This document shows, in pieces, positions 4,227 through 55,057 of a DNA stretch of 64,000 nucleotides. The stretch's first letter is position 1. Every line of letters starts with the position of its first letter. A program made the position numbers and the translations under genes. Origin of the DNA: a virus (taxonomy: Duplodnaviria > Caudoviricetes). The stretch is taken from the IMG/VR virus record IMGVR_UViG_3300028914_000059, positions 64,001 through 128,000 of that record; one strand, 5' to 3'. The notes under the pieces are model-generated. The model had not been told where the DNA came from, made no database searches, and saw only the letters and a program-made list of their open reading frames with translations.

Positions 4227-4970
4227 ATGTTTCAAACTGTTGCTAATAAACAGATAGAAGCAGTTCAATTTCGCGGGACTCTGGAAAGCGCGGCAGAATG
4301 CTGCAAACTCCTGGCCCATCTTAGCATCCCAACAAGCATAGAAGTGCAGAATGAGAAAGTAAAATTAATTATTGCTGGCATGTCTCTGCCAAAGTATATG
4401 TTTGTTATTAAAAGAAATACGGATTTCGCAGTAGTCGGGGCTTCAATCTTCACAGAATGTTTCTCTACTATAGAAGAAGAAAAACCGGCTGAAGAAAACA
4501 AAATCACAGGTGAGGCTACTCCGGAAAACATAGCCAGAATCCTGGCCCAGCTGAAGCAGCAGGAAGCCGCTCCCAAAAAAGACGAAGGCATTTGGGATAA
4601 AGCTCCGACAGGACCTAAAATGCAAGTAGTCTTAAGCCCAGAGCAGGAAGAAATGGTTAGCGATATCATCGACAATCTTGTCGAAGATATCCAGATCAAT
4701 GATAACAAAAGAGAAGACCTGCGCAGACAGGAATGGGAAGAACAATTCGGAGGTATAGACGACGATGATGAAGACTACCAGGAATTCGAAGAGTTCTCAC
4801 CGTTAGAGTTCACTACTAATCCTGGAAGTCTTACAGTAAACTTGAACGGTCGTGATAAGTCTGTAGTTACAGAAGTTCTCGATACTAAAATAAAAGACAT
4901 CATGGATAAGAAGCTTAACCCACCGAAGGTAATTACCAAGGATGGATGCATAACCTTAGACTTCCGCTAA
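4227..4970 (+). CDS. Hypothetical protein with acidic C-terminal half
   Basis: AAGGAGG SD; followed by terminator-like hairpin at about 4975-5008. Confidence 0.8.
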   Translation: MFQTVANKQIEAVQFRGTLESAAECCKLLAHLSIPTSIEVQNEKVKLIIAGMSLPKYMFVIKRNTDFAVVGASIFTECFSTIEEEKPAEENKITGEATPENIARILAQLKQQEAAPKKDEGIWDKAPTGPKMQVVLSPEQEEMVSDIIDNLVEDIQINDNKREDLRRQEWEEQFGGIDDDDEDYQEFEEFSPLEFTTNPGSLTVNLNGRDKSVVTEVLDTKIKDIMDKKLNPPKVITKDGCITLDFR

Positions 4971-5081
4971 GAGTAAAAGAGTCAGCCTGTATGTGCTGGC
5001 TCTTTTTTAGCTGGTATTTTTAGGTATAAGATAACTGTAAGTTCATGTTGAGCTTACTAACTCAAATTAAGGAGACAGACA

Positions 5082-6272
5082 GTGAAAGACTCTAAACACA
5101 CAAAAGATTTGATCAAGCGCGCTGCTCTTGATCTGGGAACTAAAACCGGTGGTGTTCCCACCACCTTCAATTTCTCGGTTTTTAAACGTAACATCAGTGA
5201 TGAAGCTGAGCTGGTCAGGAACATAGCTACTGTTATAGAAGCTACTTTCCCAGGCATGGGTAACCCATATCTCTGGGCACCGGCTCAGTATGACGTCGTT
5301 ATTAAGACTCAGGACAAGATGGGTGAATATGATGCCACCCTTTTTACTGAGCAGGCTTTGAACAGGGCTTGTGGTGAACTGGGATTGAAACGACAAGAAA
5401 AGACTCCAGACAGGGATTCTGGGATTCTTGAAATTTTAAACCACTTTAAAACTACCGGTTTTACTAGTGGGAGAATATCTAGAATTAACGGAATCCTACG
5501 TAAAAGTTCGCGCTATATGTTCTGGGATGACAACTGCAGTTGCCAGAGCGTAATAGAAACCATGGTCGAAGCTGGGCTTCTTGGCCTGGACAATAATGAC
5601 TATGGTGCCTCAGAAATTGCATACCTGACTGAATTAGGACGTGAGATCCTTAAGCTCTACGGGGATTCTATGACGGATCTGACTGTTATTACTGACCTCA
5701 TAAAATCAGTAGCCTTCTTTAAGCTGAAAAGATACTGGGCAGAAGCAGTAGCTCATCAGATTATCGAGGACAGCGACGGTCCGTTGCTGTACTCGGTTGA
5801 AAAGCGACTATTGGAACGTAAACCACGTAAAGACAACCTGGCCCCAATGCAGAAGATTGAGACTCCGAAGTATGACTATGTTAAACCTGCTGATAAACCT
5901 AGGGTTAAAGAAATCGAAATCAAACACGATGAGCTTAATCCTCCTAAGCTGGAGCTCAAGCCTAAAACTAGAGCAGCTATGCCAATAAAGATAGAACAGC
6001 CAATGGAAGTCCATAAACCAGCAGCCAAGACTATCGAAGTTGAAGAAGTATTCGTAGCACCCAAACCAACAAAGGAGAATATCGTGGTTAAAAATCCAGA
6101 TCTCGTAGAACAACTAGGAGTAGATACCCAATATCCGTCTATCTTTGAAATGGAAGATATTCAGGATGTTGTTCTCAAGCTGACAATGCTGCAGTTAAAA
6201 TGTGAAAGCAAAGGTCAGCCTGGCAAAGCTGACACAATTTCAAATATGATAAAATTCTTGATGAAAGGGTAA
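5082..6272 (+). CDS. Hypothetical protein, possible winged-helix segment
   Basis: GTG start with AAGGAG SD; EAGLL...YLTELGREIL resembles a wHTH wing; K/P/E-rich linker. Confidence 0.7.
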   Translation: MKDSKHTKDLIKRAALDLGTKTGGVPTTFNFSVFKRNISDEAELVRNIATVIEATFPGMGNPYLWAPAQYDVVIKTQDKMGEYDATLFTEQALNRACGELGLKRQEKTPDRDSGILEILNHFKTTGFTSGRISRINGILRKSSRYMFWDDNCSCQSVIETMVEAGLLGLDNNDYGASEIAYLTELGREILKLYGDSMTDLTVITDLIKSVAFFKLKRYWAEAVAHQIIEDSDGPLLYSVEKRLLERKPRKDNLAPMQKIETPKYDYVKPADKPRVKEIEIKHDELNPPKLELKPKTRAAMPIKIEQPMEVHKPAAKTIEVEEVFVAPKPTKENIVVKNPDLVEQLGVDTQYPSIFEMEDIQDVVLKLTMLQLKCESKGQPGKADTISNMIKFLMKG

Positions 6273-6400
6273 GATTGTATTATGAAATATGTAGCCGGAC
6301 TGTTAATAATATTAGCAGCCGGCTGCTTTCTAGCCGTCAGGTTATGGAAACGCAGCCGACTAATTATAGTATATAAACTAAGAAAAGTAGGAGGAATATA

Positions 6401-6517
6401 ATGGAAAAGTATGCAGCAGGAAAAGAAGTAATCTGTAAATGTGGTGAAAAGGTAACACTGTTTGCGGGCGAAATAGCAACCTGCCCTAAATGTGGCGCTA
6501 AGATTTCAGGAGATTGA
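6401..6517 (+). CDS. 38-aa zinc-ribbon peptide (not in the ORF track)
   Basis: AGGAGG SD; MEKYAAGKEVICKCG...TCPKCGAKISGD. Confidence 0.6.
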   Translation: MEKYAAGKEVICKCGEKVTLFAGEIATCPKCGAKISGD

Positions 6518-6588
6518 AACTATGGAACAAGAACTCCTGAAAGCTGTAATGCAGGGCGAAGCTAATCAAATTCTATCACAGATAAACA

Positions 6589-6900
6589 ATGACTAAGCCA
6601 AGACCCAAACATTGCATTTTCTGTAACGAACGTAGCGAGGAGATCTTCCCTTGCCAGGCATGCGAAAAAACATGGCCTGCAGGGATGACCGCCATAGTGG
6701 ATGAAAATAATAGATGGATGATGCTGCCCACTACATATTGCCAAAATGTTATAAGGGACTTAGCTAACATGAAAACCGAAGATCCTCGAATACAACTCAC
6801 CGGAGTAGATTTGGTTCAATATGTGAAAGACTGGGCTGCCATGCGTAAGCAGGAATTTCTAGAGCGTGGGCGAGCTGCATTCGCCCCACCTCAAGATTGA
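6589..6900 (+). CDS. Zinc-finger hypothetical protein
   Basis: CIFC and CQAC pairs. Confidence 0.65.
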   Translation: MTKPRPKHCIFCNERSEEIFPCQACEKTWPAGMTAIVDENNRWMMLPTTYCQNVIRDLANMKTEDPRIQLTGVDLVQYVKDWAAMRKQEFLERGRAAFAPPQD

Positions 6901-6925
6901 CTGAAAGGCATAAATCAGTTATACT
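6897..6925 (+). promoter_or_regulatory. Sigma70-type promoter
   Basis: TTGACT-17 nt-TATACT upstream of 6962. Confidence 0.6.
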
Positions 6926-6961
6926 ACAGTGTAACTGATTTTTTTATCTGGGAGTTTTAAT

Positions 6962-7384
6962 ATGTTTGAAAAATTAGCTGAAGATATAGCTTACATGGCA
7001 CAACTAAAACTTGCTGCTCTTACTGAACAAGTAGAAAAAACAGCAGACGCTAGCCATTATCTTAGACAAATGCTAAATATGGCAAAAAATGCACCTGCAG
7101 GTACGGCTAGCATGGGGGATCTGCCAGGATATAACGCTTTAGCTGGTAAATTAAAGGCGATCGCAGGCCGAGCCTACAGTGGAGCAAGAAATGCTGCTAA
7201 TTCACAGCTACCATACTCACTCAAAAGTAAAATAGTTAATAATGTCGGACAAATGGTTGGTCAGGAATCAAAATATGGAATAAAACCATATGATTTTACA
7301 CAATTTCTAGGCTCAAGTAGTCCTCGGGCTGCTCTAAGTCCACAACAATTTCTAGATCTCGCTGCCTCTAGAAGAGTTGGATAA
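6962..7384 (+). CDS. KLAxDI-leader family protein (putative internal virion protein)
   Basis: MFEKLAEDIAYMAQLKLAA...EKTA. Confidence 0.75.
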   Translation: MFEKLAEDIAYMAQLKLAALTEQVEKTADASHYLRQMLNMAKNAPAGTASMGDLPGYNALAGKLKAIAGRAYSGARNAANSQLPYSLKSKIVNNVGQMVGQESKYGIKPYDFTQFLGSSSPRAALSPQQFLDLAASRRVG

Positions 7385-8005: not shown

Positions 8006-9733
8006 ATGTTCCACAAACTAGCCCACGACATATATACAGCTACATTGATAAAGCTGGCTTTTAAAGCCAACCAGAATAACTTTACTCATGGCACCTCTGC
8101 TGTATTCTCAAAGACCACTAAGCGCCCCGACAGAGAGCCCGATAAAAAGTCACCCAAGAAAGGAAGCGATTCCGAGTACTGGGTAACTCCTATGGGGATA
8201 GTCAGGGGCAGTGACCACTGGGGCACTGTCGGGACCTGTAACTGGGATCTTGCCGGGTCGCCTGATCACCCCGGCAAGAAAGTCTATGGGTTTAGTCCGT
8301 GGGAAAACTTCAATAAGAAAACCGCAGCCTTAGATACTATCCAACACTACACTAAAAGTGGCCCAAAAGATCAGGTAAGCAAGTCGGTATCACAATGGCA
8401 TGATGAGAACCCTGAAGCTGCCGAAGCCTTTCTCCTAGATTTATATAATAAACTTGGTTGGAAAAACAACAACCCAGCAAAATATATGAAGACTAGACAT
8501 GAGTTGGAAAACTGGATGTATGAACAACTTCCTCAGTTAGGTATTAAAGCTGATACTAAATATCCAACGTATGGCAGTTTAGATCTGGGGTATACTCCTG
8601 AAGTATTCCAGGATATGAACTCTCATTTAGATATACCATTAAAAGGACTAGAAGATAAAGTTACCTTTAGTATTGGTGACTCTATACCAGTACTTGGAAA
8701 GGCAGACCCTGCCAGCAGAAAATTATACAGTCTTAAGGACATACAGAGCATGCCTTTAAATGAAGTTATAGAGAAAGTAAAGGCTAGTACAAATAATAGC
8801 AGAGGTCAGAATTACCTTGAAGCTCAGATATGGACTACCCCTGAAGAACTTCAACAGGTTGCTAAATTAATCGAAAAAACTGGCTCTAAAAAAGTTCTTA
8901 AAGGCTATTATGATATGACCCCAGAAGAACAGGAGGCTGCTCGTAACTCCCTTAAAGACAATGAAGTAGTCTACTTATCTTCTAAACCTATCGGTCGTGG
9001 GTATGAGGGATCTGCTTATCCAGTACTGACTAAAGACCTGGGTGAAGCTATCAGGAAAAACTTTAACGGTTGTTATGGCGAGACACCTCACCTTCAACGC
9101 ATGATAGAATTAAAAGGTAACAAAATAGACCAGCAGGTAAGAGATTTATTTGATGCTGGGGAATTTGAGAAAGCATATGAACTATATGCTGCAGACAATC
9201 CACGCAAACGGATGAAAAACAGGCTGGCTGAAAGAATGCAAGTACTAATGAATCCTGATAATGCTGATCTGTTTGCTGCATTAGCTAAAGCCCAGCCGAG
9301 AAGAGTGCATGAAAATATAGGTGGGGGTATAAGAGCTGTAGAACCAGGATTAGGTAGTCTTATTATGGAAAAGCTAAAAGTTCAAGATGACTCGAAAGGG
9401 TTCACTGAAGCTGACTTTATATCCATGAATACAGACCTAGCTGAAAGAATCATGAAAGCTCATATCGGAGACAAGCCGGCTTATGGAACGGACTTCCCGG
9501 AAAAATTTACAACACCCAATGGTAAGATAGGGCCCAACATGCGTTTTGCACCTATACTACGTGGCGCTGATGGTAAACTTTACCAGGTCAAGGATATACG
9601 AAACGTCTTTGATAAAATGGCTCTGCCAGAAATGTTCAGAAGTCACGAGACGGCCTTTCACAATGCCGGACTCAATGATAACAATCAGCTGAAAATATTT
9701 GATTTTGGTACTAAACCAATAGAGGAGGCCTAA
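8006..9733 (+). CDS. KLAxDI-leader multidomain protein with C-terminal protein-kinase-like domain
   Basis: Leader MFHKLAHDIYTATLIKLA; internal KTA (aa105) and KTG (aa291); IGRGYEGSAY glycine loop, AIRK, LIMEKL, LKIFDFG. Confidence 0.7.
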   Translation: MFHKLAHDIYTATLIKLAFKANQNNFTHGTSAVFSKTTKRPDREPDKKSPKKGSDSEYWVTPMGIVRGSDHWGTVGTCNWDLAGSPDHPGKKVYGFSPWENFNKKTAALDTIQHYTKSGPKDQVSKSVSQWHDENPEAAEAFLLDLYNKLGWKNNNPAKYMKTRHELENWMYEQLPQLGIKADTKYPTYGSLDLGYTPEVFQDMNSHLDIPLKGLEDKVTFSIGDSIPVLGKADPASRKLYSLKDIQSMPLNEVIEKVKASTNNSRGQNYLEAQIWTTPEELQQVAKLIEKTGSKKVLKGYYDMTPEEQEAARNSLKDNEVVYLSSKPIGRGYEGSAYPVLTKDLGEAIRKNFNGCYGETPHLQRMIELKGNKIDQQVRDLFDAGEFEKAYELYAADNPRKRMKNRLAERMQVLMNPDNADLFAALAKAQPRRVHENIGGGIRAVEPGLGSLIMEKLKVQDDSKGFTEADFISMNTDLAERIMKAHIGDKPAYGTDFPEKFTTPNGKIGPNMRFAPILRGADGKLYQVKDIRNVFDKMALPEMFRSHETAFHNAGLNDNNQLKIFDFGTKPIEEA

Positions 9734-50829: not shown

Positions 50830-50858
50830 TTGAATCATCATATAAATGATGGTATAAT
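50830..50858 (+). promoter_or_regulatory. Sigma70 promoter of the RNA array
   Basis: TTGAAT-17 nt-TATAAT with TG extended -10. Confidence 0.7.
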
Positions 50859-51088: not shown

Positions 51089-51123
51089 AATGCAGGTTTC
51101 ACCTTCACCAGAAACCTCTTAAT

Positions 51124-51197
51124 GGCAGGGTAGCTCAGATGGCTAGAGCACACGGTTCATACCCGTGATGTCGTGAGTTCGATTCTCACCCCTGCCA
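51124..51197 (+). tRNA. tRNA-Met(CAT), elongator-type
   Basis: GGCAGGG/CCCTGCC; CACGG-TTCATAC-CCGTG; canonical D and T arms; CCA not encoded. Confidence 0.92.
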
Positions 51198-51202
51198 TAT
51201 GT

Positions 51203-51415
51203 GTCCTGGCAGCCTAATGGGCAGGCGGCCATAAGCAGTCCACTATTTTTATCCATCCATTTGAAGCTCCATCTATATTGATTAAAACTTTAGTGGATTA
51301 GCAGGAAGATGTCAGTTCGAATCTGACATGCTCCACATCGGGGCTATAGACTAACTGGCAAGTCGTCCTACTTGCGTGCTTATGGTGAAAGCTGGTTCGA
51401 TACCAGTCCAGGACT
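51203..51415 (+). ncRNA. Double-headed tRNA-like RNA 1 (outer tRNA, inner permuted tRNA, third arm)
   Basis: GTCCTGG(51203)/CCAGGAC(51408); GCCATAAGCA/TGCTTATGGT; inner ATGCTCC-A/GGGGCTA; AGCAGGA/TCCTACT; two D arms and two TTCGA T arms. Confidence 0.85.
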
Positions 51416-51430
51416 TTCTTAATAATTTTC

Positions 51431-51515
51431 GGGTAGGTGCCGGAGTGGTTAATCGGAGCGGACTGTAAATCCGCTGGTCTAACGGTCTACGGTGGTTCGA
51501 ATCCACCCCTGCCCA
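51431..51515 (+). tRNA. tRNA-Tyr(GTA)
   Basis: GCGGA-CTGTAAA-TCCGC; long variable arm; A73. Confidence 0.92.
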
Positions 51516-51581
51516 TTTGATGGAGGGAAAAGGATACTACAAAGGCTAAGTTTGGAGTATCCTGGAACCTACATCAACAAA

Positions 51582-51729
51582 GAACCAGTAGCTCAAGTGG
51601 ATAGAGTATCCATGGAATCAGGAAGCAACGTGAGTTCGAATCTCACTGTCGTTGGTAACAAAACGACATGGCCAAGCGGCGAGGCACCTGTCGATTGGGA
51701 GGTTCTGGGTTCGAACCCCAGCTGGTTCA
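51582..51729 (+). ncRNA. Double-headed tRNA-like RNA 2
   Basis: Outer GAACCAG/CTGGTTC-A; inner TGTCGTT-G/AACGACA; connectors TCC/GGA and CAGG/CCTG; two D arms and two T arms. Confidence 0.85.
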
Positions 51730-51730
51730 A

Positions 51731-51876
51731 TGGTTATTTCTGGATGTGTCAAAGTGATACCCCTGTGTTCGATAGGATGCATACATCGGCATGGGTAGTA
51801 TAGCAGAAGACACAGGTTGCTGCAGCAACTACGTAGAGCCATAGTGCTCTTTGGGTAAAACCCACCAGGATAATCA
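51731..51876 (+). ncRNA. Unassigned multibranch structured RNA
   Basis: TGGTTATTTCTGG/CCAGGATAATCA closing stem; CCTGTGTT/GACACAGG; several short hairpins. Confidence 0.55.
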
Positions 51877-51879
51877 CCT

Positions 51880-51963
51880 GGAGGAATGTCCGAGTGGTCG
51901 ATGGTGAGAGTTTGCTAAACTCTTGGATCAAAAGTCCCGCAGGTTCGAATCCTGCTTCCTCCG
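51880..51963 (+). tRNA. tRNA-Ser(GCT)
   Basis: GGAGGAA/TTCCTCC-G; AGAGT-TTGCTAA-ACTCT; variable arm. Confidence 0.92.
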
Positions 51964-52079
51964 ATGATTATTGTTTGAGCAGTGTGCACTATGACAACAG
52001 CGGCGAAGTGTCAGGCTGAGACGTCAGCATTGTCCCAGTAGCCGGCATGAGTCATACATTGGCTGTTCATGCAATATGA

Positions 52080-52175
52080 GGACGACAGACCGAGTTGGAG
52101 AACGGGGAGGCTATTTAAGCCTCTGCTCATTTGGTAGATGAGCTATAGTGTGGTTCGAATCCACACTGTCGTCCT
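52080..52175 (+). tRNA. Atypical type-II tRNA-like RNA, anticodon undefined
   Basis: GGACGACA/TGTCGTCC; GAGG-CTATTTAAG-CCTC; 8-bp variable arm; 6-bp T stem. Confidence 0.6.
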
Positions 52176-52462
52176 TGACGGGTACAGCGGTACAGCCTAG
52201 GCCCTACACTAATGGATAAGAGTGCGCACTCTTGAGTGTATTATGGCCGGACGTAGAGTGGTTATCCTTCCCAATGAAAACGTCCCCTTGAGATTTTCGA
52301 CGGTTTGCTGGATGTGCCGGCCAGCATCATTTCCAACGCGGAACCCTGATCAGATTGCGTAAGTACGAAATGCGTTCACACAGAAAGAACACCGTTGGCT
52401 GGGTGTATGAGGTAGCGGTTGGCGCTACGTCTCGTGCCCAGCCTTCCTGCCCTGCAGGGATT

Positions 52463-52518
52463 AGACCTCCACGCGGGAGCTTAAGCCTTGTAAGCACCGT
52501 ACCATGTGGAGGCCGCTA
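52463..52518 (+). repeat. Structured motif copy 1 (AGCCTTG loop)
   Basis: AGACCTCCACGCGGGA...AGCCTTG...CCGTACCATGTGGAGGCCGCTA; second copy at 53934. Confidence 0.75.
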
Positions 52519-52519
52519 T

Positions 52520-52604
52520 GGGGCGGTAGTTGTAATGGTAGAACGTGCAGATAGATAATTCCGCGGTTGTCTGCAAGGTCGTGGTTCGATTCCACGTCGC
52601 CCAT
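52520..52604 (+). ncRNA. tRNA-like RNA with elongated anticodon arm and no 7-nt loop
   Basis: GGGGCGG/TCGCCCC-A; TGCAGATA/TGTCTGCA around 14 nt; CGTGG-TTCGATT-CCACG. Confidence 0.75.
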
Positions 52605-52625
52605 TTTCTGAAAAGGAGAATTACT

Positions 52626-53255
52626 ATGCCTAAACTTTGTGCAAAAATTGGCGGAGAAACATATAAGTTTGGTTTTAACGGGGGGGTACTTCAAGAAAAA
52701 ACTTTAAACCAAACTGTAAATGATGAAGCCACTGCTTACTTTATAGAGGCTTATAAGGTAACTAGTCATAATCCATGGCAAGCCATGAGTTATACTATAG
52801 CAAAAGATTTAAAGTATAATTGTCCTTGTAAATGTTACTTTAATGACTCAATGCTTATATGGACAGCTGGATGGAACAGAGACTTCTTTATTAGTGATAA
52901 AAATGTAAGCAATACGGTGAGCGAATATAGAGTCTATATAAAAATACCGAAGTTTATTGAAAACTGGGGGAGGCCTGATGCTGACACCTCTTTTATGCTT
53001 AGTGAAATATACTCCAGATGTGACAGGAATATAATATGTTCAACAGATGGTGATCCCATGCATGAGTTAGATATAGGTGATGATCATATAGCTAGAAGCT
53101 TACTGACAGACTGGACTAATTATATATTTGATGGTGACAGGGATTATTACATAGCATTTGTGATAGAGTTAGATACTACTCACTCCAACATTCACCTGTT
53201 TGTACCATCTTTTAAAGCGACATTTTACAGATATACAGGAAACTATATAGCATAA
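52626..53255 (+). CDS. Hypothetical protein (tandem duplicate A), possibly fibre-tip-like
   Basis: Start MPKLCAKIGG after AAGGAG; closely similar to 53281. Confidence 0.75.
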   Translation: MPKLCAKIGGETYKFGFNGGVLQEKTLNQTVNDEATAYFIEAYKVTSHNPWQAMSYTIAKDLKYNCPCKCYFNDSMLIWTAGWNRDFFISDKNVSNTVSEYRVYIKIPKFIENWGRPDADTSFMLSEIYSRCDRNIICSTDGDPMHELDIGDDHIARSLLTDWTNYIFDGDRDYYIAFVIELDTTHSNIHLFVPSFKATFYRYTGNYIA

Positions 53256-53280
53256 TCTATATAAAGGTAGGAGAATTACT

Positions 53281-53886
53281 GTGCCTAAACTTTGTGCAAA
53301 AATTGGTGGAGAAACATATAAGCTTGATTTTAACAGTGGGGTACTTCAGGAAAAAACTTTAAACCCAACTGTAAATGATGAAGCCACTGCTTACTTTATA
53401 AGGGCTTGGGGGGCGACTACTGGTCGGACTGTAGCAGAAGATTTAAAGTATAATTGTCCTTGTAAATGTTACTTTAATGACTCAATGCTTATATGGACAG
53501 CTGGATGGAACCAAAACTTCTTTATTAGTAATAAAAAGGTAAGCGATACGGCGCTAAAATATGAAGTTTGGATAAAAATACCTAAGTTTATTGAAAACTG
53601 GGGGAAACCTGATGATAGCACCTCTTTCATGTTTAGTGGAATATATTCCAGATATAATAGGAATATAATATGTTCAACAGATGGTGACCCTTTGCATGAG
53701 CTAGACATGGGTGATGACCATATAGAGAGAAGCTTAATGATAGACTGGACTAATTTTTTTGATGGAGACCATGATTATTACATACTATTCAGAGTAGAGT
53801 TAGATGGCACTCACTCCAACATTTACCTGTTTGTGCCATCTTTTAAAGTGACCTTTTATAGATATACAGGAACCTATCTAGCATAA
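53281..53886 (+). CDS. Hypothetical protein (tandem duplicate B)
   Basis: GTG start; shared GCATAATCTATATAAAGGTAGGAG junction. Confidence 0.75.
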   Translation: MPKLCAKIGGETYKLDFNSGVLQEKTLNPTVNDEATAYFIRAWGATTGRTVAEDLKYNCPCKCYFNDSMLIWTAGWNQNFFISNKKVSDTALKYEVWIKIPKFIENWGKPDDSTSFMFSGIYSRYNRNIICSTDGDPLHELDMGDDHIERSLMIDWTNFFDGDHDYYILFRVELDGTHSNIYLFVPSFKVTFYRYTGTYLA

Positions 53887-53933
53887 TCTATATAAAGGTA
53901 GGAGTTCAGCCTTGGAAATAAAGACTGCCAATC

Positions 53934-53986
53934 AGACCTCCACGCGGGAATCCAGCCTTGGGATCCGTACCATGTGGAGGCCGCTA
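53934..53986 (+). repeat. Structured motif copy 2 (AGCCTTG loop)
   Basis: Same flanks as copy 1; inner stem changed to ATCC/GGAT. Confidence 0.75.
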
Positions 53987-54141
53987 AATTAAAAGTGCCA
54001 AACGGGAAAGGCACTCTAAACATGGACACATCAACCATGGACCCGGTACCGGGTCCCAATGAAGCACCGCCAGAAATGGCTACGGCACTGGTTACAAAGC
54101 CGTAGTACCTGCCTCTCGAGCGCATGAGACAGGAACAAACT

Positions 54142-54292
54142 GAAGTAGAGGTAGGCTGGTAGCCCAGCTGGTTAAGGCACCCGGAGGAAAGTTAGCGGGG
54201 GATTATATTCCGTCACGCATTAGCTTTCTGCAAGGGAGATCAGGGGTTCGAGTCCCTTCCAGGCGACAAGACCGAAAGGTCCCCTCTACTTC
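54142..54292 (+). ncRNA. tRNA elbow embedded in a larger RNA
   Basis: Outer stem GAAGTAGAGG/CCTCTACTTC; D arm GCC-CAGCTGGTTAA-GGC; T arm AGGGG-TTCGAGT-CCCTT; anticodon arm replaced by long stem GGAAAGTTAG/TTAGCTTTCT. Confidence 0.7.
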
Positions 54293-54298
54293 TCTTTA

Positions 54299-54371
54299 GC
54301 CCCAATCGTCTAATATAATAGGATAACCGGCTTCTAGCCGGAGATGCGGTGAGAGTCCGCAAGGGGCGCCA
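54299..54371 (+). tRNA. Degenerate tRNA, anticodon TCT (Arg) on a Glu-like body
   Basis: GCCCC/GGGGC-G-CCA; CCGG-CTTCTAG-CCGG; D loop lacks GG; T loop TGAGAGT. Confidence 0.5.
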
Positions 54372-54372
54372 A

Positions 54373-54466
54373 GACGATTTATCCGAATTGGAAATAGGGG
54401 GAGGCTGTGAGCCTCCGGATATATGTTAATGTATATCCTGTGGTGGTTCGATTCCACCAGTCGTCA
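54373..54466 (+). tRNA. Type-II (long variable arm) tRNA with GTG (His) anticodon and A73
   Basis: GACGATT/AGTCGTC-A; GGAGG-CTGTGAG-CCTCC; variable arm GGATATAT/GTATATCC. Confidence 0.8.
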
Positions 54467-54470
54467 ATCT

Positions 54471-54541
54471 GGGTCGGTAACCAAGCGGTTAGGTGCTGCT
54501 CTGCAAAAGCAGCTAGATCAGTTCGACTCTGATCCGGCCCT
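54471..54541 (+). tRNA. tRNA-Cys(GCA)
   Basis: GGGTCGG/CCGGCCC-T; CTGCT-CTGCAAA-AGCAG; U73. Confidence 0.92.
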
Positions 54542-54598
54542 CTCATTTATTCATGAGATAAAATTTCTTTTCGTTGGCCAGCGCTGGCCAACATTTTT

Positions 54599-54760
54599 GA
54601 CTGCCTCGTCTAACGGATAAGACACAGGATGGGTTACGTAAAGGGTCATTTCTATCTCCTTAGTTTGATCTCAGAGTCTCATTCCTTCCTTTCATTAACG
54701 GTGTTTTTAGTCAAGTCAAGTTGCTCCGCCTGAATGCCGGTTCGAATCCGGCGGCAGTCT
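54599..54760 (+). ncRNA. tRNA scaffold with a 100-nt insert replacing the anticodon loop
   Basis: GACTGCC/GGCAGTC; GTCT/AGAC D arm; CAGG(54625)/CCTG(54729); GCCGG-TTCGAAT-CCGGC. Confidence 0.8.
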
Positions 54761-54895
54761 CTGGAGCCCGTATGAAATATGATGGGTTACCAATAAGGCA
54801 TGCTTCCGCCTGTAATGGGGCAGAGTATGTTTTAATTCGATGTCCTCCTTTTAAAAATTGTCATCGAGCATGCTGGGAAACTGGTATGCTCTTAC

Positions 54896-54979
54896 GCCCG
54901 GTTGGCGAAACTGGCAGACGCATATGATTCAGGTTCATATGTCCGCAAGGACGTGCGGGTTCGACCCCCGTGCCGGGTA
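54896..54979 (+). tRNA. tRNA-Leu(CAG)
   Basis: TATGA-TTCAGGT-TCATA; GTCC-GCAA-GGAC variable arm; A73. Confidence 0.92.
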
Positions 54980-55017
54980 CTGTTGTTTGTAGTAATCATT
55001 AAAAAACTCTATGCCTT

Positions 55018-55057
55018 GGTGCAGCTGTAATATTTTATTGCCGCTGCACTTTTTTTA
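55018..55057 (+). terminator. Intrinsic terminator closing the RNA array
   Basis: GGTGCAGC/GCTGCACT followed by a T tract. Confidence 0.65.

Follow-up and report, generated by a model that had tools for sequence, protein, structure and literature searches.

Circularly permuted tRNA genes occur in Cyanidioschyzon merolae and in other algae and archaea (PMC3978253). In these genes the 3′ half lies upstream of the 5′ half, a short linker joins the two at the acceptor, and the break falls at the anticodon loop; the precursor becomes circular by way of a bulge-helix-bulge motif, which the splicing endonuclease cuts, and the product is a decoding tRNA. YrlA (Y RNA-like A, Rfam family RF02553; Chen et al. 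2014) carries a permuted tRNA-like module, and phage copies of it exist (PMC4201824). The YrlA of Mycobacterium smegmatis, which has a 7-bp closed acceptor, is cut by RNase P in vitro, and in vivo it is both cut and CCA-tailed (PMC4201824). In two-piece transfer-messenger RNA (tmRNA; RF04321, which includes forms without a coding sequence) an alanine-type acceptor/T-arm domain is permuted, two base-paired strands are matured by tRNA enzymes, and alanyl-tRNA synthetase (AlaRS) charges the molecule without an anticodon (PMC11915505). In the present work we describe an RNA gene, RNA1, located in a window of 64,000 nt (bases 64001-128000) of the 180,070-bp IMG/VR virus record IMGVR_UViG_3300028914_000059, which has a CheckV completeness of 93%. 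The phage is uncultured and stems from the gut or rumen; its close strains come from buffalo and cattle gut or rumen assemblies. RNA1 very probably combines a tRNA body in normal order with a circularly permuted tRNA-Ala body and a third hairpin, which meet at a three-way junction. The new element lies in how the two bodies are joined: the stem that closes the permuted module serves, in a second and complete tRNA body, as the anticodon stem.

RNA1 belongs to a phage tRNA array on the + strand (51123-54980), where it begins 5 nt after tRNA-Met and ends 15 nt before tRNA-Tyr, a gene-like packing. Its parts are given below by position in the window, with 'outer' denoting the body in normal order and 'inner' the permuted one.

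51203-51415, + strand: RNA1, the whole double-headed tRNA-like gene (213 nt)
51203-51209, + strand: outer acceptor, 5′ strand GTCCTGG; 7/7 Watson-Crick pairs with 51408-51414, pair probability 0.67-1.0
51212-51226, + strand: outer D arm; 4-bp stem (51212-15/51223-26) and 7-nt loop AATGGGC, with C instead of U at position 8
51228-51237, + strand: 10-bp extended outer anticodon helix, 5′ strand; 10/10 pairs with 51377-51386, one of them G.U, probability 0.9-1.0
51238-51298, + strand: hairpin H3; 8/8 stem (51238-45/51291-98) and an A/U-rich 45-nt loop (51246-51290) containing CAT-N6-CTCC
51300-51306, + strand: inner anticodon stem, 3′ strand AGCAGGA; 6/7 pairs with 51366-51372
51311-51327, + strand: inner T arm GTCAG-TTCGAAT-CTGAC; stem 51311-15/51323-27
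51328-51335, + strand: inner acceptor, 3′ strand ATGCTCC with the discriminator A73 (A51335); holds U70 of G3.U70
51336-51339, + strand: linker CATC closing the inner acceptor; by analogy, the predicted RNase Z/RNase P excision piece
51340-51346, + strand: inner acceptor, 5′ strand GGGGCTA; the first ten bases, GGGGCTATAG, match bacterial tRNA-Ala
51349-51364, + strand: inner D arm GACT / AACTGGCA / AGTC; stem 51349-52/51361-64, with U8, A14, G18 G19 and A21 present
51366-51376, + strand: inner anticodon stem, 5′ strand, and the relic half-loop C32 U33 U34 G35 C36 G37; called tRNA-Ala(tgc) by ARAGORN once re-joined
51377-51386, + strand: 10-bp helix, 3′ strand TGCTTATGGT
51391-51407, + strand: outer T arm GCTGG-TTCGATA-CCAGT; stem 51391-95/51403-07
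51408-51415, + strand: outer acceptor, 3′ strand CCAGGAC with the discriminator T51415; CCA is not encoded

Read from its 5′ end, the inner unit starts with the 3′ strand of its anticodon stem and continues with the T arm, the 3′ acceptor strand and A73, the CATC linker, the 5′ acceptor strand, the D arm and the 5′ strand of the anticodon stem. The 10-bp outer helix passes into H3 without an unpaired base on its 5′ strand. Because the strand 51228-51245 is continuous through both helices, H3 and the outer anticodon helix most likely stack into one 18-bp rod, from which the Ala-type body would branch off to the side. A 7-nt anticodon loop on a 5-bp stem, the hallmark of a canonical tRNA, is absent from both heads: the outer stem runs for 10 bp into the three-way junction, and the inner loop is opened after position 37. 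A first-pass annotation of the window had proposed this crossed pairing; as an observation it is confirmed, while the interpretation placed on it is partly supported. Every strand of the crossed helices lies where that annotation had put it, and we could verify the outer acceptor GTCCTGG/CCAGGAC, the 10/10 helix with its one G-U pair, the inner anticodon stem TCCTACT/AGCAGGA (6/7) and the third helix with its 45-nt loop (8/8).

Thermodynamic folding recovers the crossed topology without constraints. RNAfold predicts -73.1 kcal/mol for RNA1 (z = -3.5; none of 200 shuffles was equal) and finds the outer acceptor, the 10-bp helix, H3, both T arms and the inner acceptor, with pair probabilities of about 0.8-1.0 in six of the nine helices. 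The two halves folded alone reach -40.3 and -17.6 kcal/mol, a sum of -57.9, so that the crossed fold, which the annotation had suggested comparing with the linear one, comes out about 15 kcal/mol better. Linear readings of RNA1 score 15.5 and 12.1 bits with the Rfam tRNA model RF00005, against a threshold of 29, and break five of the seven acceptor pairs. ARAGORN, from which pseudo or undetermined calls had been expected, reports neither a tRNA nor a tmRNA for RNA1 in its native order; once the heads are re-joined in silico, each of the four in RNA1 and its sister RNA2, described below, is called as a tRNA. The RNA1 stretch is identical in a 50.5-kb Joint Genome Institute (JGI) contig (L038), which differs from the window by 1 mismatch in 20.6 kb, and since this second contig was assembled independently, a local mis-assembly, raised as a concern in the first-pass annotation, is unlikely.

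The two heads differ in how much of a tRNA identity they retain. The inner head pairs G1-C72, G2-C71, G3.U70 (G51342.T51332) and G4-C69 and has the discriminator A73 (A51335) and a canonical T loop, so the G3:U70 pair and A73 previously ascribed to it are both in place. Judged from its sequence, this head is a tRNA-Ala(UGC) whose opening lies at 37/38, where introns classically occur. The TGCG relic lies single-stranded within the three-way junction, and as the half-loop C-U-UGC-G persists, the term 'anticodon-less', applied earlier to the molecule, holds for its function and not for its sequence. With no anticodon loop, RNA1 cannot decode. The outer head has G1-C72, U2-A71, C3-G70, U73, C8 and the D loop AATGGGC; it shows no recognised synthetase identity set and no visible anticodon remnant.

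The second copy of the design that had been announced was found 166 nt downstream of RNA1:

51582-51729, + strand: RNA2, sister RNA with the crossed topology of RNA1 and an unrelated sequence

Like RNA1, RNA2 lies in the phage tRNA array and consists of a normal-order body in which a permuted body replaces the anticodon loop. The third hairpin and the three-way junction are present in RNA1 only; in RNA2 a 5x4-nt internal loop, with GGAAT facing TCGA, joins the two anticodon stems. Two ENA contigs (L035/L036) from a different phage carry part of the array in another genomic setting, including an RNA2 that is 93% identical. Between these two RNA2 sequences there are 10 substitutions, three in loops or the linker and seven in stems, none of which breaks a pair. 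One two-sided compensatory change in the crossed inner acceptor replaces A-U by G-C, four further substitutions retain pairs through G.U or C-G, and one converts a U.U mismatch into G.U. In register, 98.8% of the alignment's cells are paired; shifting the partner by one to three columns lowers the figure to 33-46%. A shuffle control was as good in 260 of 500 cases, and two sequences cannot reach significance in it. The comparison supports conservation of the double-headed design in RNA2. A pattern scan of IMG/VR for RNA2 gave a normal tRNA-Ser as its sole match, and permuted junctions were found in none of the tRNA regions taken from five jumbo phages in culture, Ralstonia FLC1-1B, BcepSauron, Erwinia pEa_SNUABM_29, Serratia Kodama and Proteus phage 10. 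In L035 a gene for IS605 OrfB/TnpB adjoins the array (L035 11959-13227).

Set beside YrlA, the inner head of RNA1 (51300-51372) shows the same succession of T arm, closed acceptor stem and D arm, with its 'anticodon' side continuing into a helix. In YrlA this closing helix binds Ro60/Rsr and the gene lies beside rsr, whereas in RNA1 it is the anticodon stem of the second tRNA. The best RF02553 match in the phage genome scores 15.1 bits against a gathering threshold of 69 and lies at 51169-51226, outside the inner head; nothing is found in 51195-51425 at E <= 10, and TROVE/Ro60 (PF05731) has no match in the 180-kb genome. Two-piece tmRNA and RNA1 share the permuted Ala-type acceptor/T-arm domain, in RNA1 with G3.U70 and A73. 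RNA1 differs in its full D arm and in lacking pseudoknots, a degron-ending tag frame and a phage SmpB, and it is not matched by RF04321 (tmRNA_permuted) even at E <= 10. With the permuted genes of the C. merolae type it has in common the order of the halves, the short acceptor linker and the break at the anticodon loop, whereas the permuted unit of RNA1 is embedded in another tRNA and no 3-nt bulges flank a 4-bp helix at 51300/51376. A further virus record (L044, IMGVR_UViG_3300003319_000064) contains two single-headed permuted tRNA-like modules (4349-4436 and 6378-6498) among 22 ordinary phage tRNAs. They follow the order T arm, acceptor hairpin, D arm, and one is Ala-type (GGGGCUA/UGGCUCC-A), whereas their closing stems are plain 7-bp helices and not a second tRNA body, and their sequences bear no similarity to RNA1. 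CCA is encoded in one of these modules; the other is the one with the alanine-type acceptor. The double-headed tRNA design was not found in Rfam 15 or in full-text literature searches. To that extent the claim that no RNA with this architecture has been described stands; it does not extend to the permuted module itself, which is common to YrlA and two-piece tmRNA.

The best overall explanation, to which we assign a probability of roughly 0.45, is that RNA1 is a non-decoding tRNA mimic produced from the tRNA array, dependent on tRNA processing and possibly chargeable with alanine. That RNA1 is a functional gene and not debris is, taken by itself, probable; that its function consists in mimicry of the tRNA acceptor and elbow is a more tentative proposal, the likeliest of the roles considered but with odds somewhat below even. 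RNA1 would be co-transcribed with the array from a site near 50830:

50830-50858, + strand: promoter-like site TTGAAT-17-TATAAT with TG (10/12), the best upstream of the array, a consensus match only

This site is the putative start of a polycistronic array precursor. The outer ends of RNA1 would be cut by RNase P and RNase Z, as for the neighbouring tRNAs, and the same two enzymes would open the closed inner acceptor at 51335/51340 and free CAUC, for which YrlA offers a precedent. Cleavage at 51340 with 3′ trimming to a two-strand RNA, as had been suggested earlier, is by this analogy plausible. A CCA-adding enzyme would then extend both 3′ ends of RNA1. CCA is likewise not encoded in the array's tRNAs for Met, Tyr, Ser, Cys and Leu, the five that Rfam confirms, and the phage genome lacks a CCA-adding enzyme, SmpB and RlaP. 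The expected product consists of two strands, about 133 and 76 nt long, which have two acceptor ends and are joined through four crossed helices. For AlaRS the G3-U70 pair is the main determinant, and minihelices made of acceptor and T arm can be charged (PMC6451123, PMC11392972); as the enzyme relies on this pair and does not need the anticodon, the inner end should be chargeable.

One current view of phage tRNA genes is that they serve in part to counter host defences by which tRNA is destroyed or disabled. RNA1 would act by occupying or diverting proteins that read the tRNA acceptor end or elbow. Candidates include AlaRS and EF-Tu, the enzymes of tRNA processing, and host defence toxins whose action modifies the acceptor stem or the CCA end. 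The decoy role is pure inference. The missing anticodon loop would make RNA1 a poor bait for anticodon nucleases, so that mimicry is likelier to be aimed at readers of the acceptor end and elbow. Toxins that are linked to antiphage defence and recognise nothing of a tRNA but its acceptor stem or CCA end are known: toxSAS enzymes probe the acceptor stem and transfer pyrophosphate to CCA (PMC11559606), and nucleotidyltransferases of the MenT type act on the tRNA acceptor end (PMC10435456). It is a doubtful but specific extension of the mimicry proposal that RNA1 and RNA2 represent an undescribed class of counter-defence RNAs. As bivalent two-strand mimics with two CCA ends, one of them alanine-chargeable, and no anticodon to be cut, they might divert acceptor-end effectors (toxSAS/CapRel-type pyrophosphokinases, MenT/AbiEii nucleotidyltransferases and acceptor-stem nucleases) or tRNA-binding translation factors. 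If this is true, the phage would employ a different tactic in which tRNA is imitated instead of replaced, an anticodon being lost and a second acceptor end gained, and the permuted module of YrlA and two-piece tmRNA could be grafted onto a full tRNA. The design would also amount to a natural, self-processing two-strand RNA scaffold.

A number of observations count against RNA1 being a functional mimic. RNA1 and the tRNA-Met that precedes it are absent from the L035 array. No homolog of RNA1 was found by blastn in 50,697 phage records, where only the flanking tRNAs matched, or by pattern scans of IMG/VR, JGI metagenomes and GTDB genomes, in which the matches were two-piece tmRNAs, plain tandem tRNA-Ala genes and single-headed permuted modules. 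Without a homolog there is no covariation support for RNA1 itself, and as an orphan its case rests on its own sequence and on the analogy with RNA2. In closer strains the contigs break off immediately before the array, relatives by the capsid region are not in IMG/VR, and an exact-protein look-up of the spurious open reading frames (ORFs) across the RNA1 region returned two JGI contigs only. The inner acceptor ATGCTCC-A/GGGGCTA (51328-34/51340-46) has the position, strand order and linker first described for it and lacks the full pairing: five of the seven positions pair, U6.U67 and A7.A66 being unpaired. In the inner anticodon stem one of the seven positions is likewise unpaired. The inner D arm and anticodon stem reach a pair probability of 0.06-0.18, as the ensemble favours a competing 6-bp hairpin (51358-63/51370-75); forcing the two arms costs 3.5 kcal/mol. 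With C8 and no A21, the elbow of the outer head may be imperfect. Finally, no tRNA-related partner gene lies beside RNA1. As to the inner head, A66 can pair with U48 to give a 6-bp T stem, so that the stack of inner acceptor and T stem still has 12 layers, and RNAfold misfolds three of five genuine tRNAs of the array, which places the weak inner arms within the error of the method.

The most serious alternative is that RNA1 is recombination debris, formed when part of a tandem tRNA-Ala pair, in permuted order, was inserted into a different tRNA gene and was tolerated in a fast-changing array. An orphan in all collections searched that is missing from the L035 array is what such an event would leave, and two mismatches in the inner acceptor, one in the inner anticodon stem and C8 in the outer head fit the same picture, as do the mosaic nature of the array and the TnpB gene that adjoins it in L035. 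The outer stems, however, are all perfect, and a 10/10 anticodon stem that continues into an 8/8 hairpin is not a product of decay. Moreover, the topology recurs with unrelated sequence in RNA2, where it is kept by a compensatory change, and the two mismatches of the inner acceptor are offset by the sixth T-stem pair, which keeps the 12-layer stack. We regard debris as improbable.

It is quite unlikely that RNA1 is the precursor of a split or permuted tRNA, in which cuts near 51300/01 and 51376/77, ligation of the inner unit into a circle by a phage RNA ligase and trimming by RNase P/Z would yield a working tRNA-Ala(UGC). In the inner 5′ half C32-U33-UGC-G37 is indeed still in register, and the break coincides precisely with 37/38, the canonical intron site; the re-joined construct is called tRNA-Ala(tgc) by ARAGORN, and the array has no other tRNA-Ala. 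A stem re-joined in this way would, however, contain an A31.C39 mismatch, the outer unit would retain H3 and no anticodon, and the RNA2 junction, with 9 unpaired bases for two 7-nt loops, cannot yield two tRNAs. The machinery is equally incomplete. An RNA ligase (PF09414 plus a PHA02142 OB domain) is encoded by the phage 110 kb from RNA1, whereas the genome contains no match to RtcB or to tRNA splicing endonuclease (PF01974), and the bulge-helix-bulge motif is missing from RNA1. More distant relatives of the phage encode a ligase together with RlaP, so the lineage seems to repair RNA. Judging from these genes, such repair would fit pressure from tRNA-damaging defences, and it proves nothing on RNA1. 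The ligase gene (G000 4652-5809, outside the window) is directly followed by an AEP-TOTE primase-like gene (5809-7272).

We give similarly little credence to a role of the tRNA bodies as a scaffold for a guide, with the 45-nt H3 loop as the active part. In that loop CAU-N6-CUCC forms the complement of a start region with Shine-Dalgarno sequence and AUG (51258-51270, read as its reverse complement, is GGAG-N6-ATG), and CAT-N6-CTCC is also found in the 100-nt insert of a tRNA-like gene at 54647. The non-coding part of the array holds three matches to the motif against 0.75 expected, an enrichment that is weak, with 33 of 1000 shuffles equal. Targets in the phage genome are complementary over 11 nt at most (<=11), less than the median of 12 reached by shuffles; ribosomes would outcompete a match of 4+3 bp, and RNA2 shares the design without having a loop of the H3 type. 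Least credible is a tmRNA-like rescue or anti-rescue RNA, whose permuted, two-piece, alanine-charged domain would enter stalled ribosomes or block host trans-translation, as a tmRNA-like RNA without a coding sequence in phage DS6A is reported to do (PMC11915505): the permuted Ala-type acceptor (GGGGCUA.../...GCUCCA, with G3.U70 and A73), the two-piece maturation proposed for it and an open frame in H3 of 11 codons from GCU to UAG are in keeping with it, whereas ARAGORN calls no tmRNA, RF04321 does not match, the inner head has a full D stem, pseudoknots and a phage SmpB are missing, and the H3 frame ends in ...LVD, not in the usual ...AA degron. The candidate tmRNA tag in H3 was rejected for want of a model match and because of its atypical frame.

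The array as a whole contains more tRNA-like elements than tRNA finders report. Seven tRNAs are called by ARAGORN (Met, Tyr, Ser, 'Lys', 'His', Cys and Leu), and a motif scan for T arms finds 14, so that seven T arms belong to uncalled elements. Four of these seven are accounted for by RNA1 (51203-51415) and RNA2 (51582-51729). As such genes are invisible to tRNAscan, ARAGORN and Rfam, the 'intergenic' stretches in phage tRNA arrays are probably under-annotated. One terminator-like site is located at 54573-92, and a second, recognised by eye from the sequence, lies near 55020-55055, 3′ of tRNA-Leu. The majority of the phage proteome has no match to a Pfam or PHROG family.

Several further features of the array were noted. 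The genes called 'tRNA-Lys(ttt)' (52082-52174) and 'tRNA-His(gtg)' (54373-54466) by ARAGORN have long variable arms and similar acceptor stems; such a type II body is unexpected for Lys or His. At the position of the 'Lys' gene, L035 carries a tRNA with an 8-nt anticodon loop (9471-9553; ARAGORN 'caga'). Three other tRNA-shaped bodies, none of them called by a tRNA finder, have oversized anticodon regions, namely an 18-nt loop at 52520-52605, an insert of ~55 nt at 54140-54265 and one of ~100 nt at 54599-54760. The first of them ends at the ribosome-binding site of ORF 52626, which suggests a tRNA-like transcript punctuation. An uncalled cloverleaf-like RNA at 54299-54370 has a 5-bp acceptor, an encoded GCCA end, an atypical T loop and CUUCUAG in its anticodon region.

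Two paralogous ORFs whose family is unassigned (52626-53255 and 53281-53886) are situated inside the array. A repeat of ~57 nt, with 83% identical copies at 52460-52518 and 53931-53986, stands 5′ of the first ORF and 3′ of the second. The 345 nt preceding ORF 52626 (52175-52520) are non-coding, yet 91% conserved in L035. In two other sequences, a 1034-nt soil contig (L030) and positions 1-300 of L034, tRNA halves are split by repeated units of ~50 nt (CAATTTCGTCG ... GAATGC ... ACTACAT); acceptor strands pair across these units and not within them, and the array may represent another type of disrupted or permuted tRNA gene. Between tRNA-Tyr and RNA2, a hairpin AGGATACT ... AGTATCCT occupies 51516-51581 and has 88% identity in L035.

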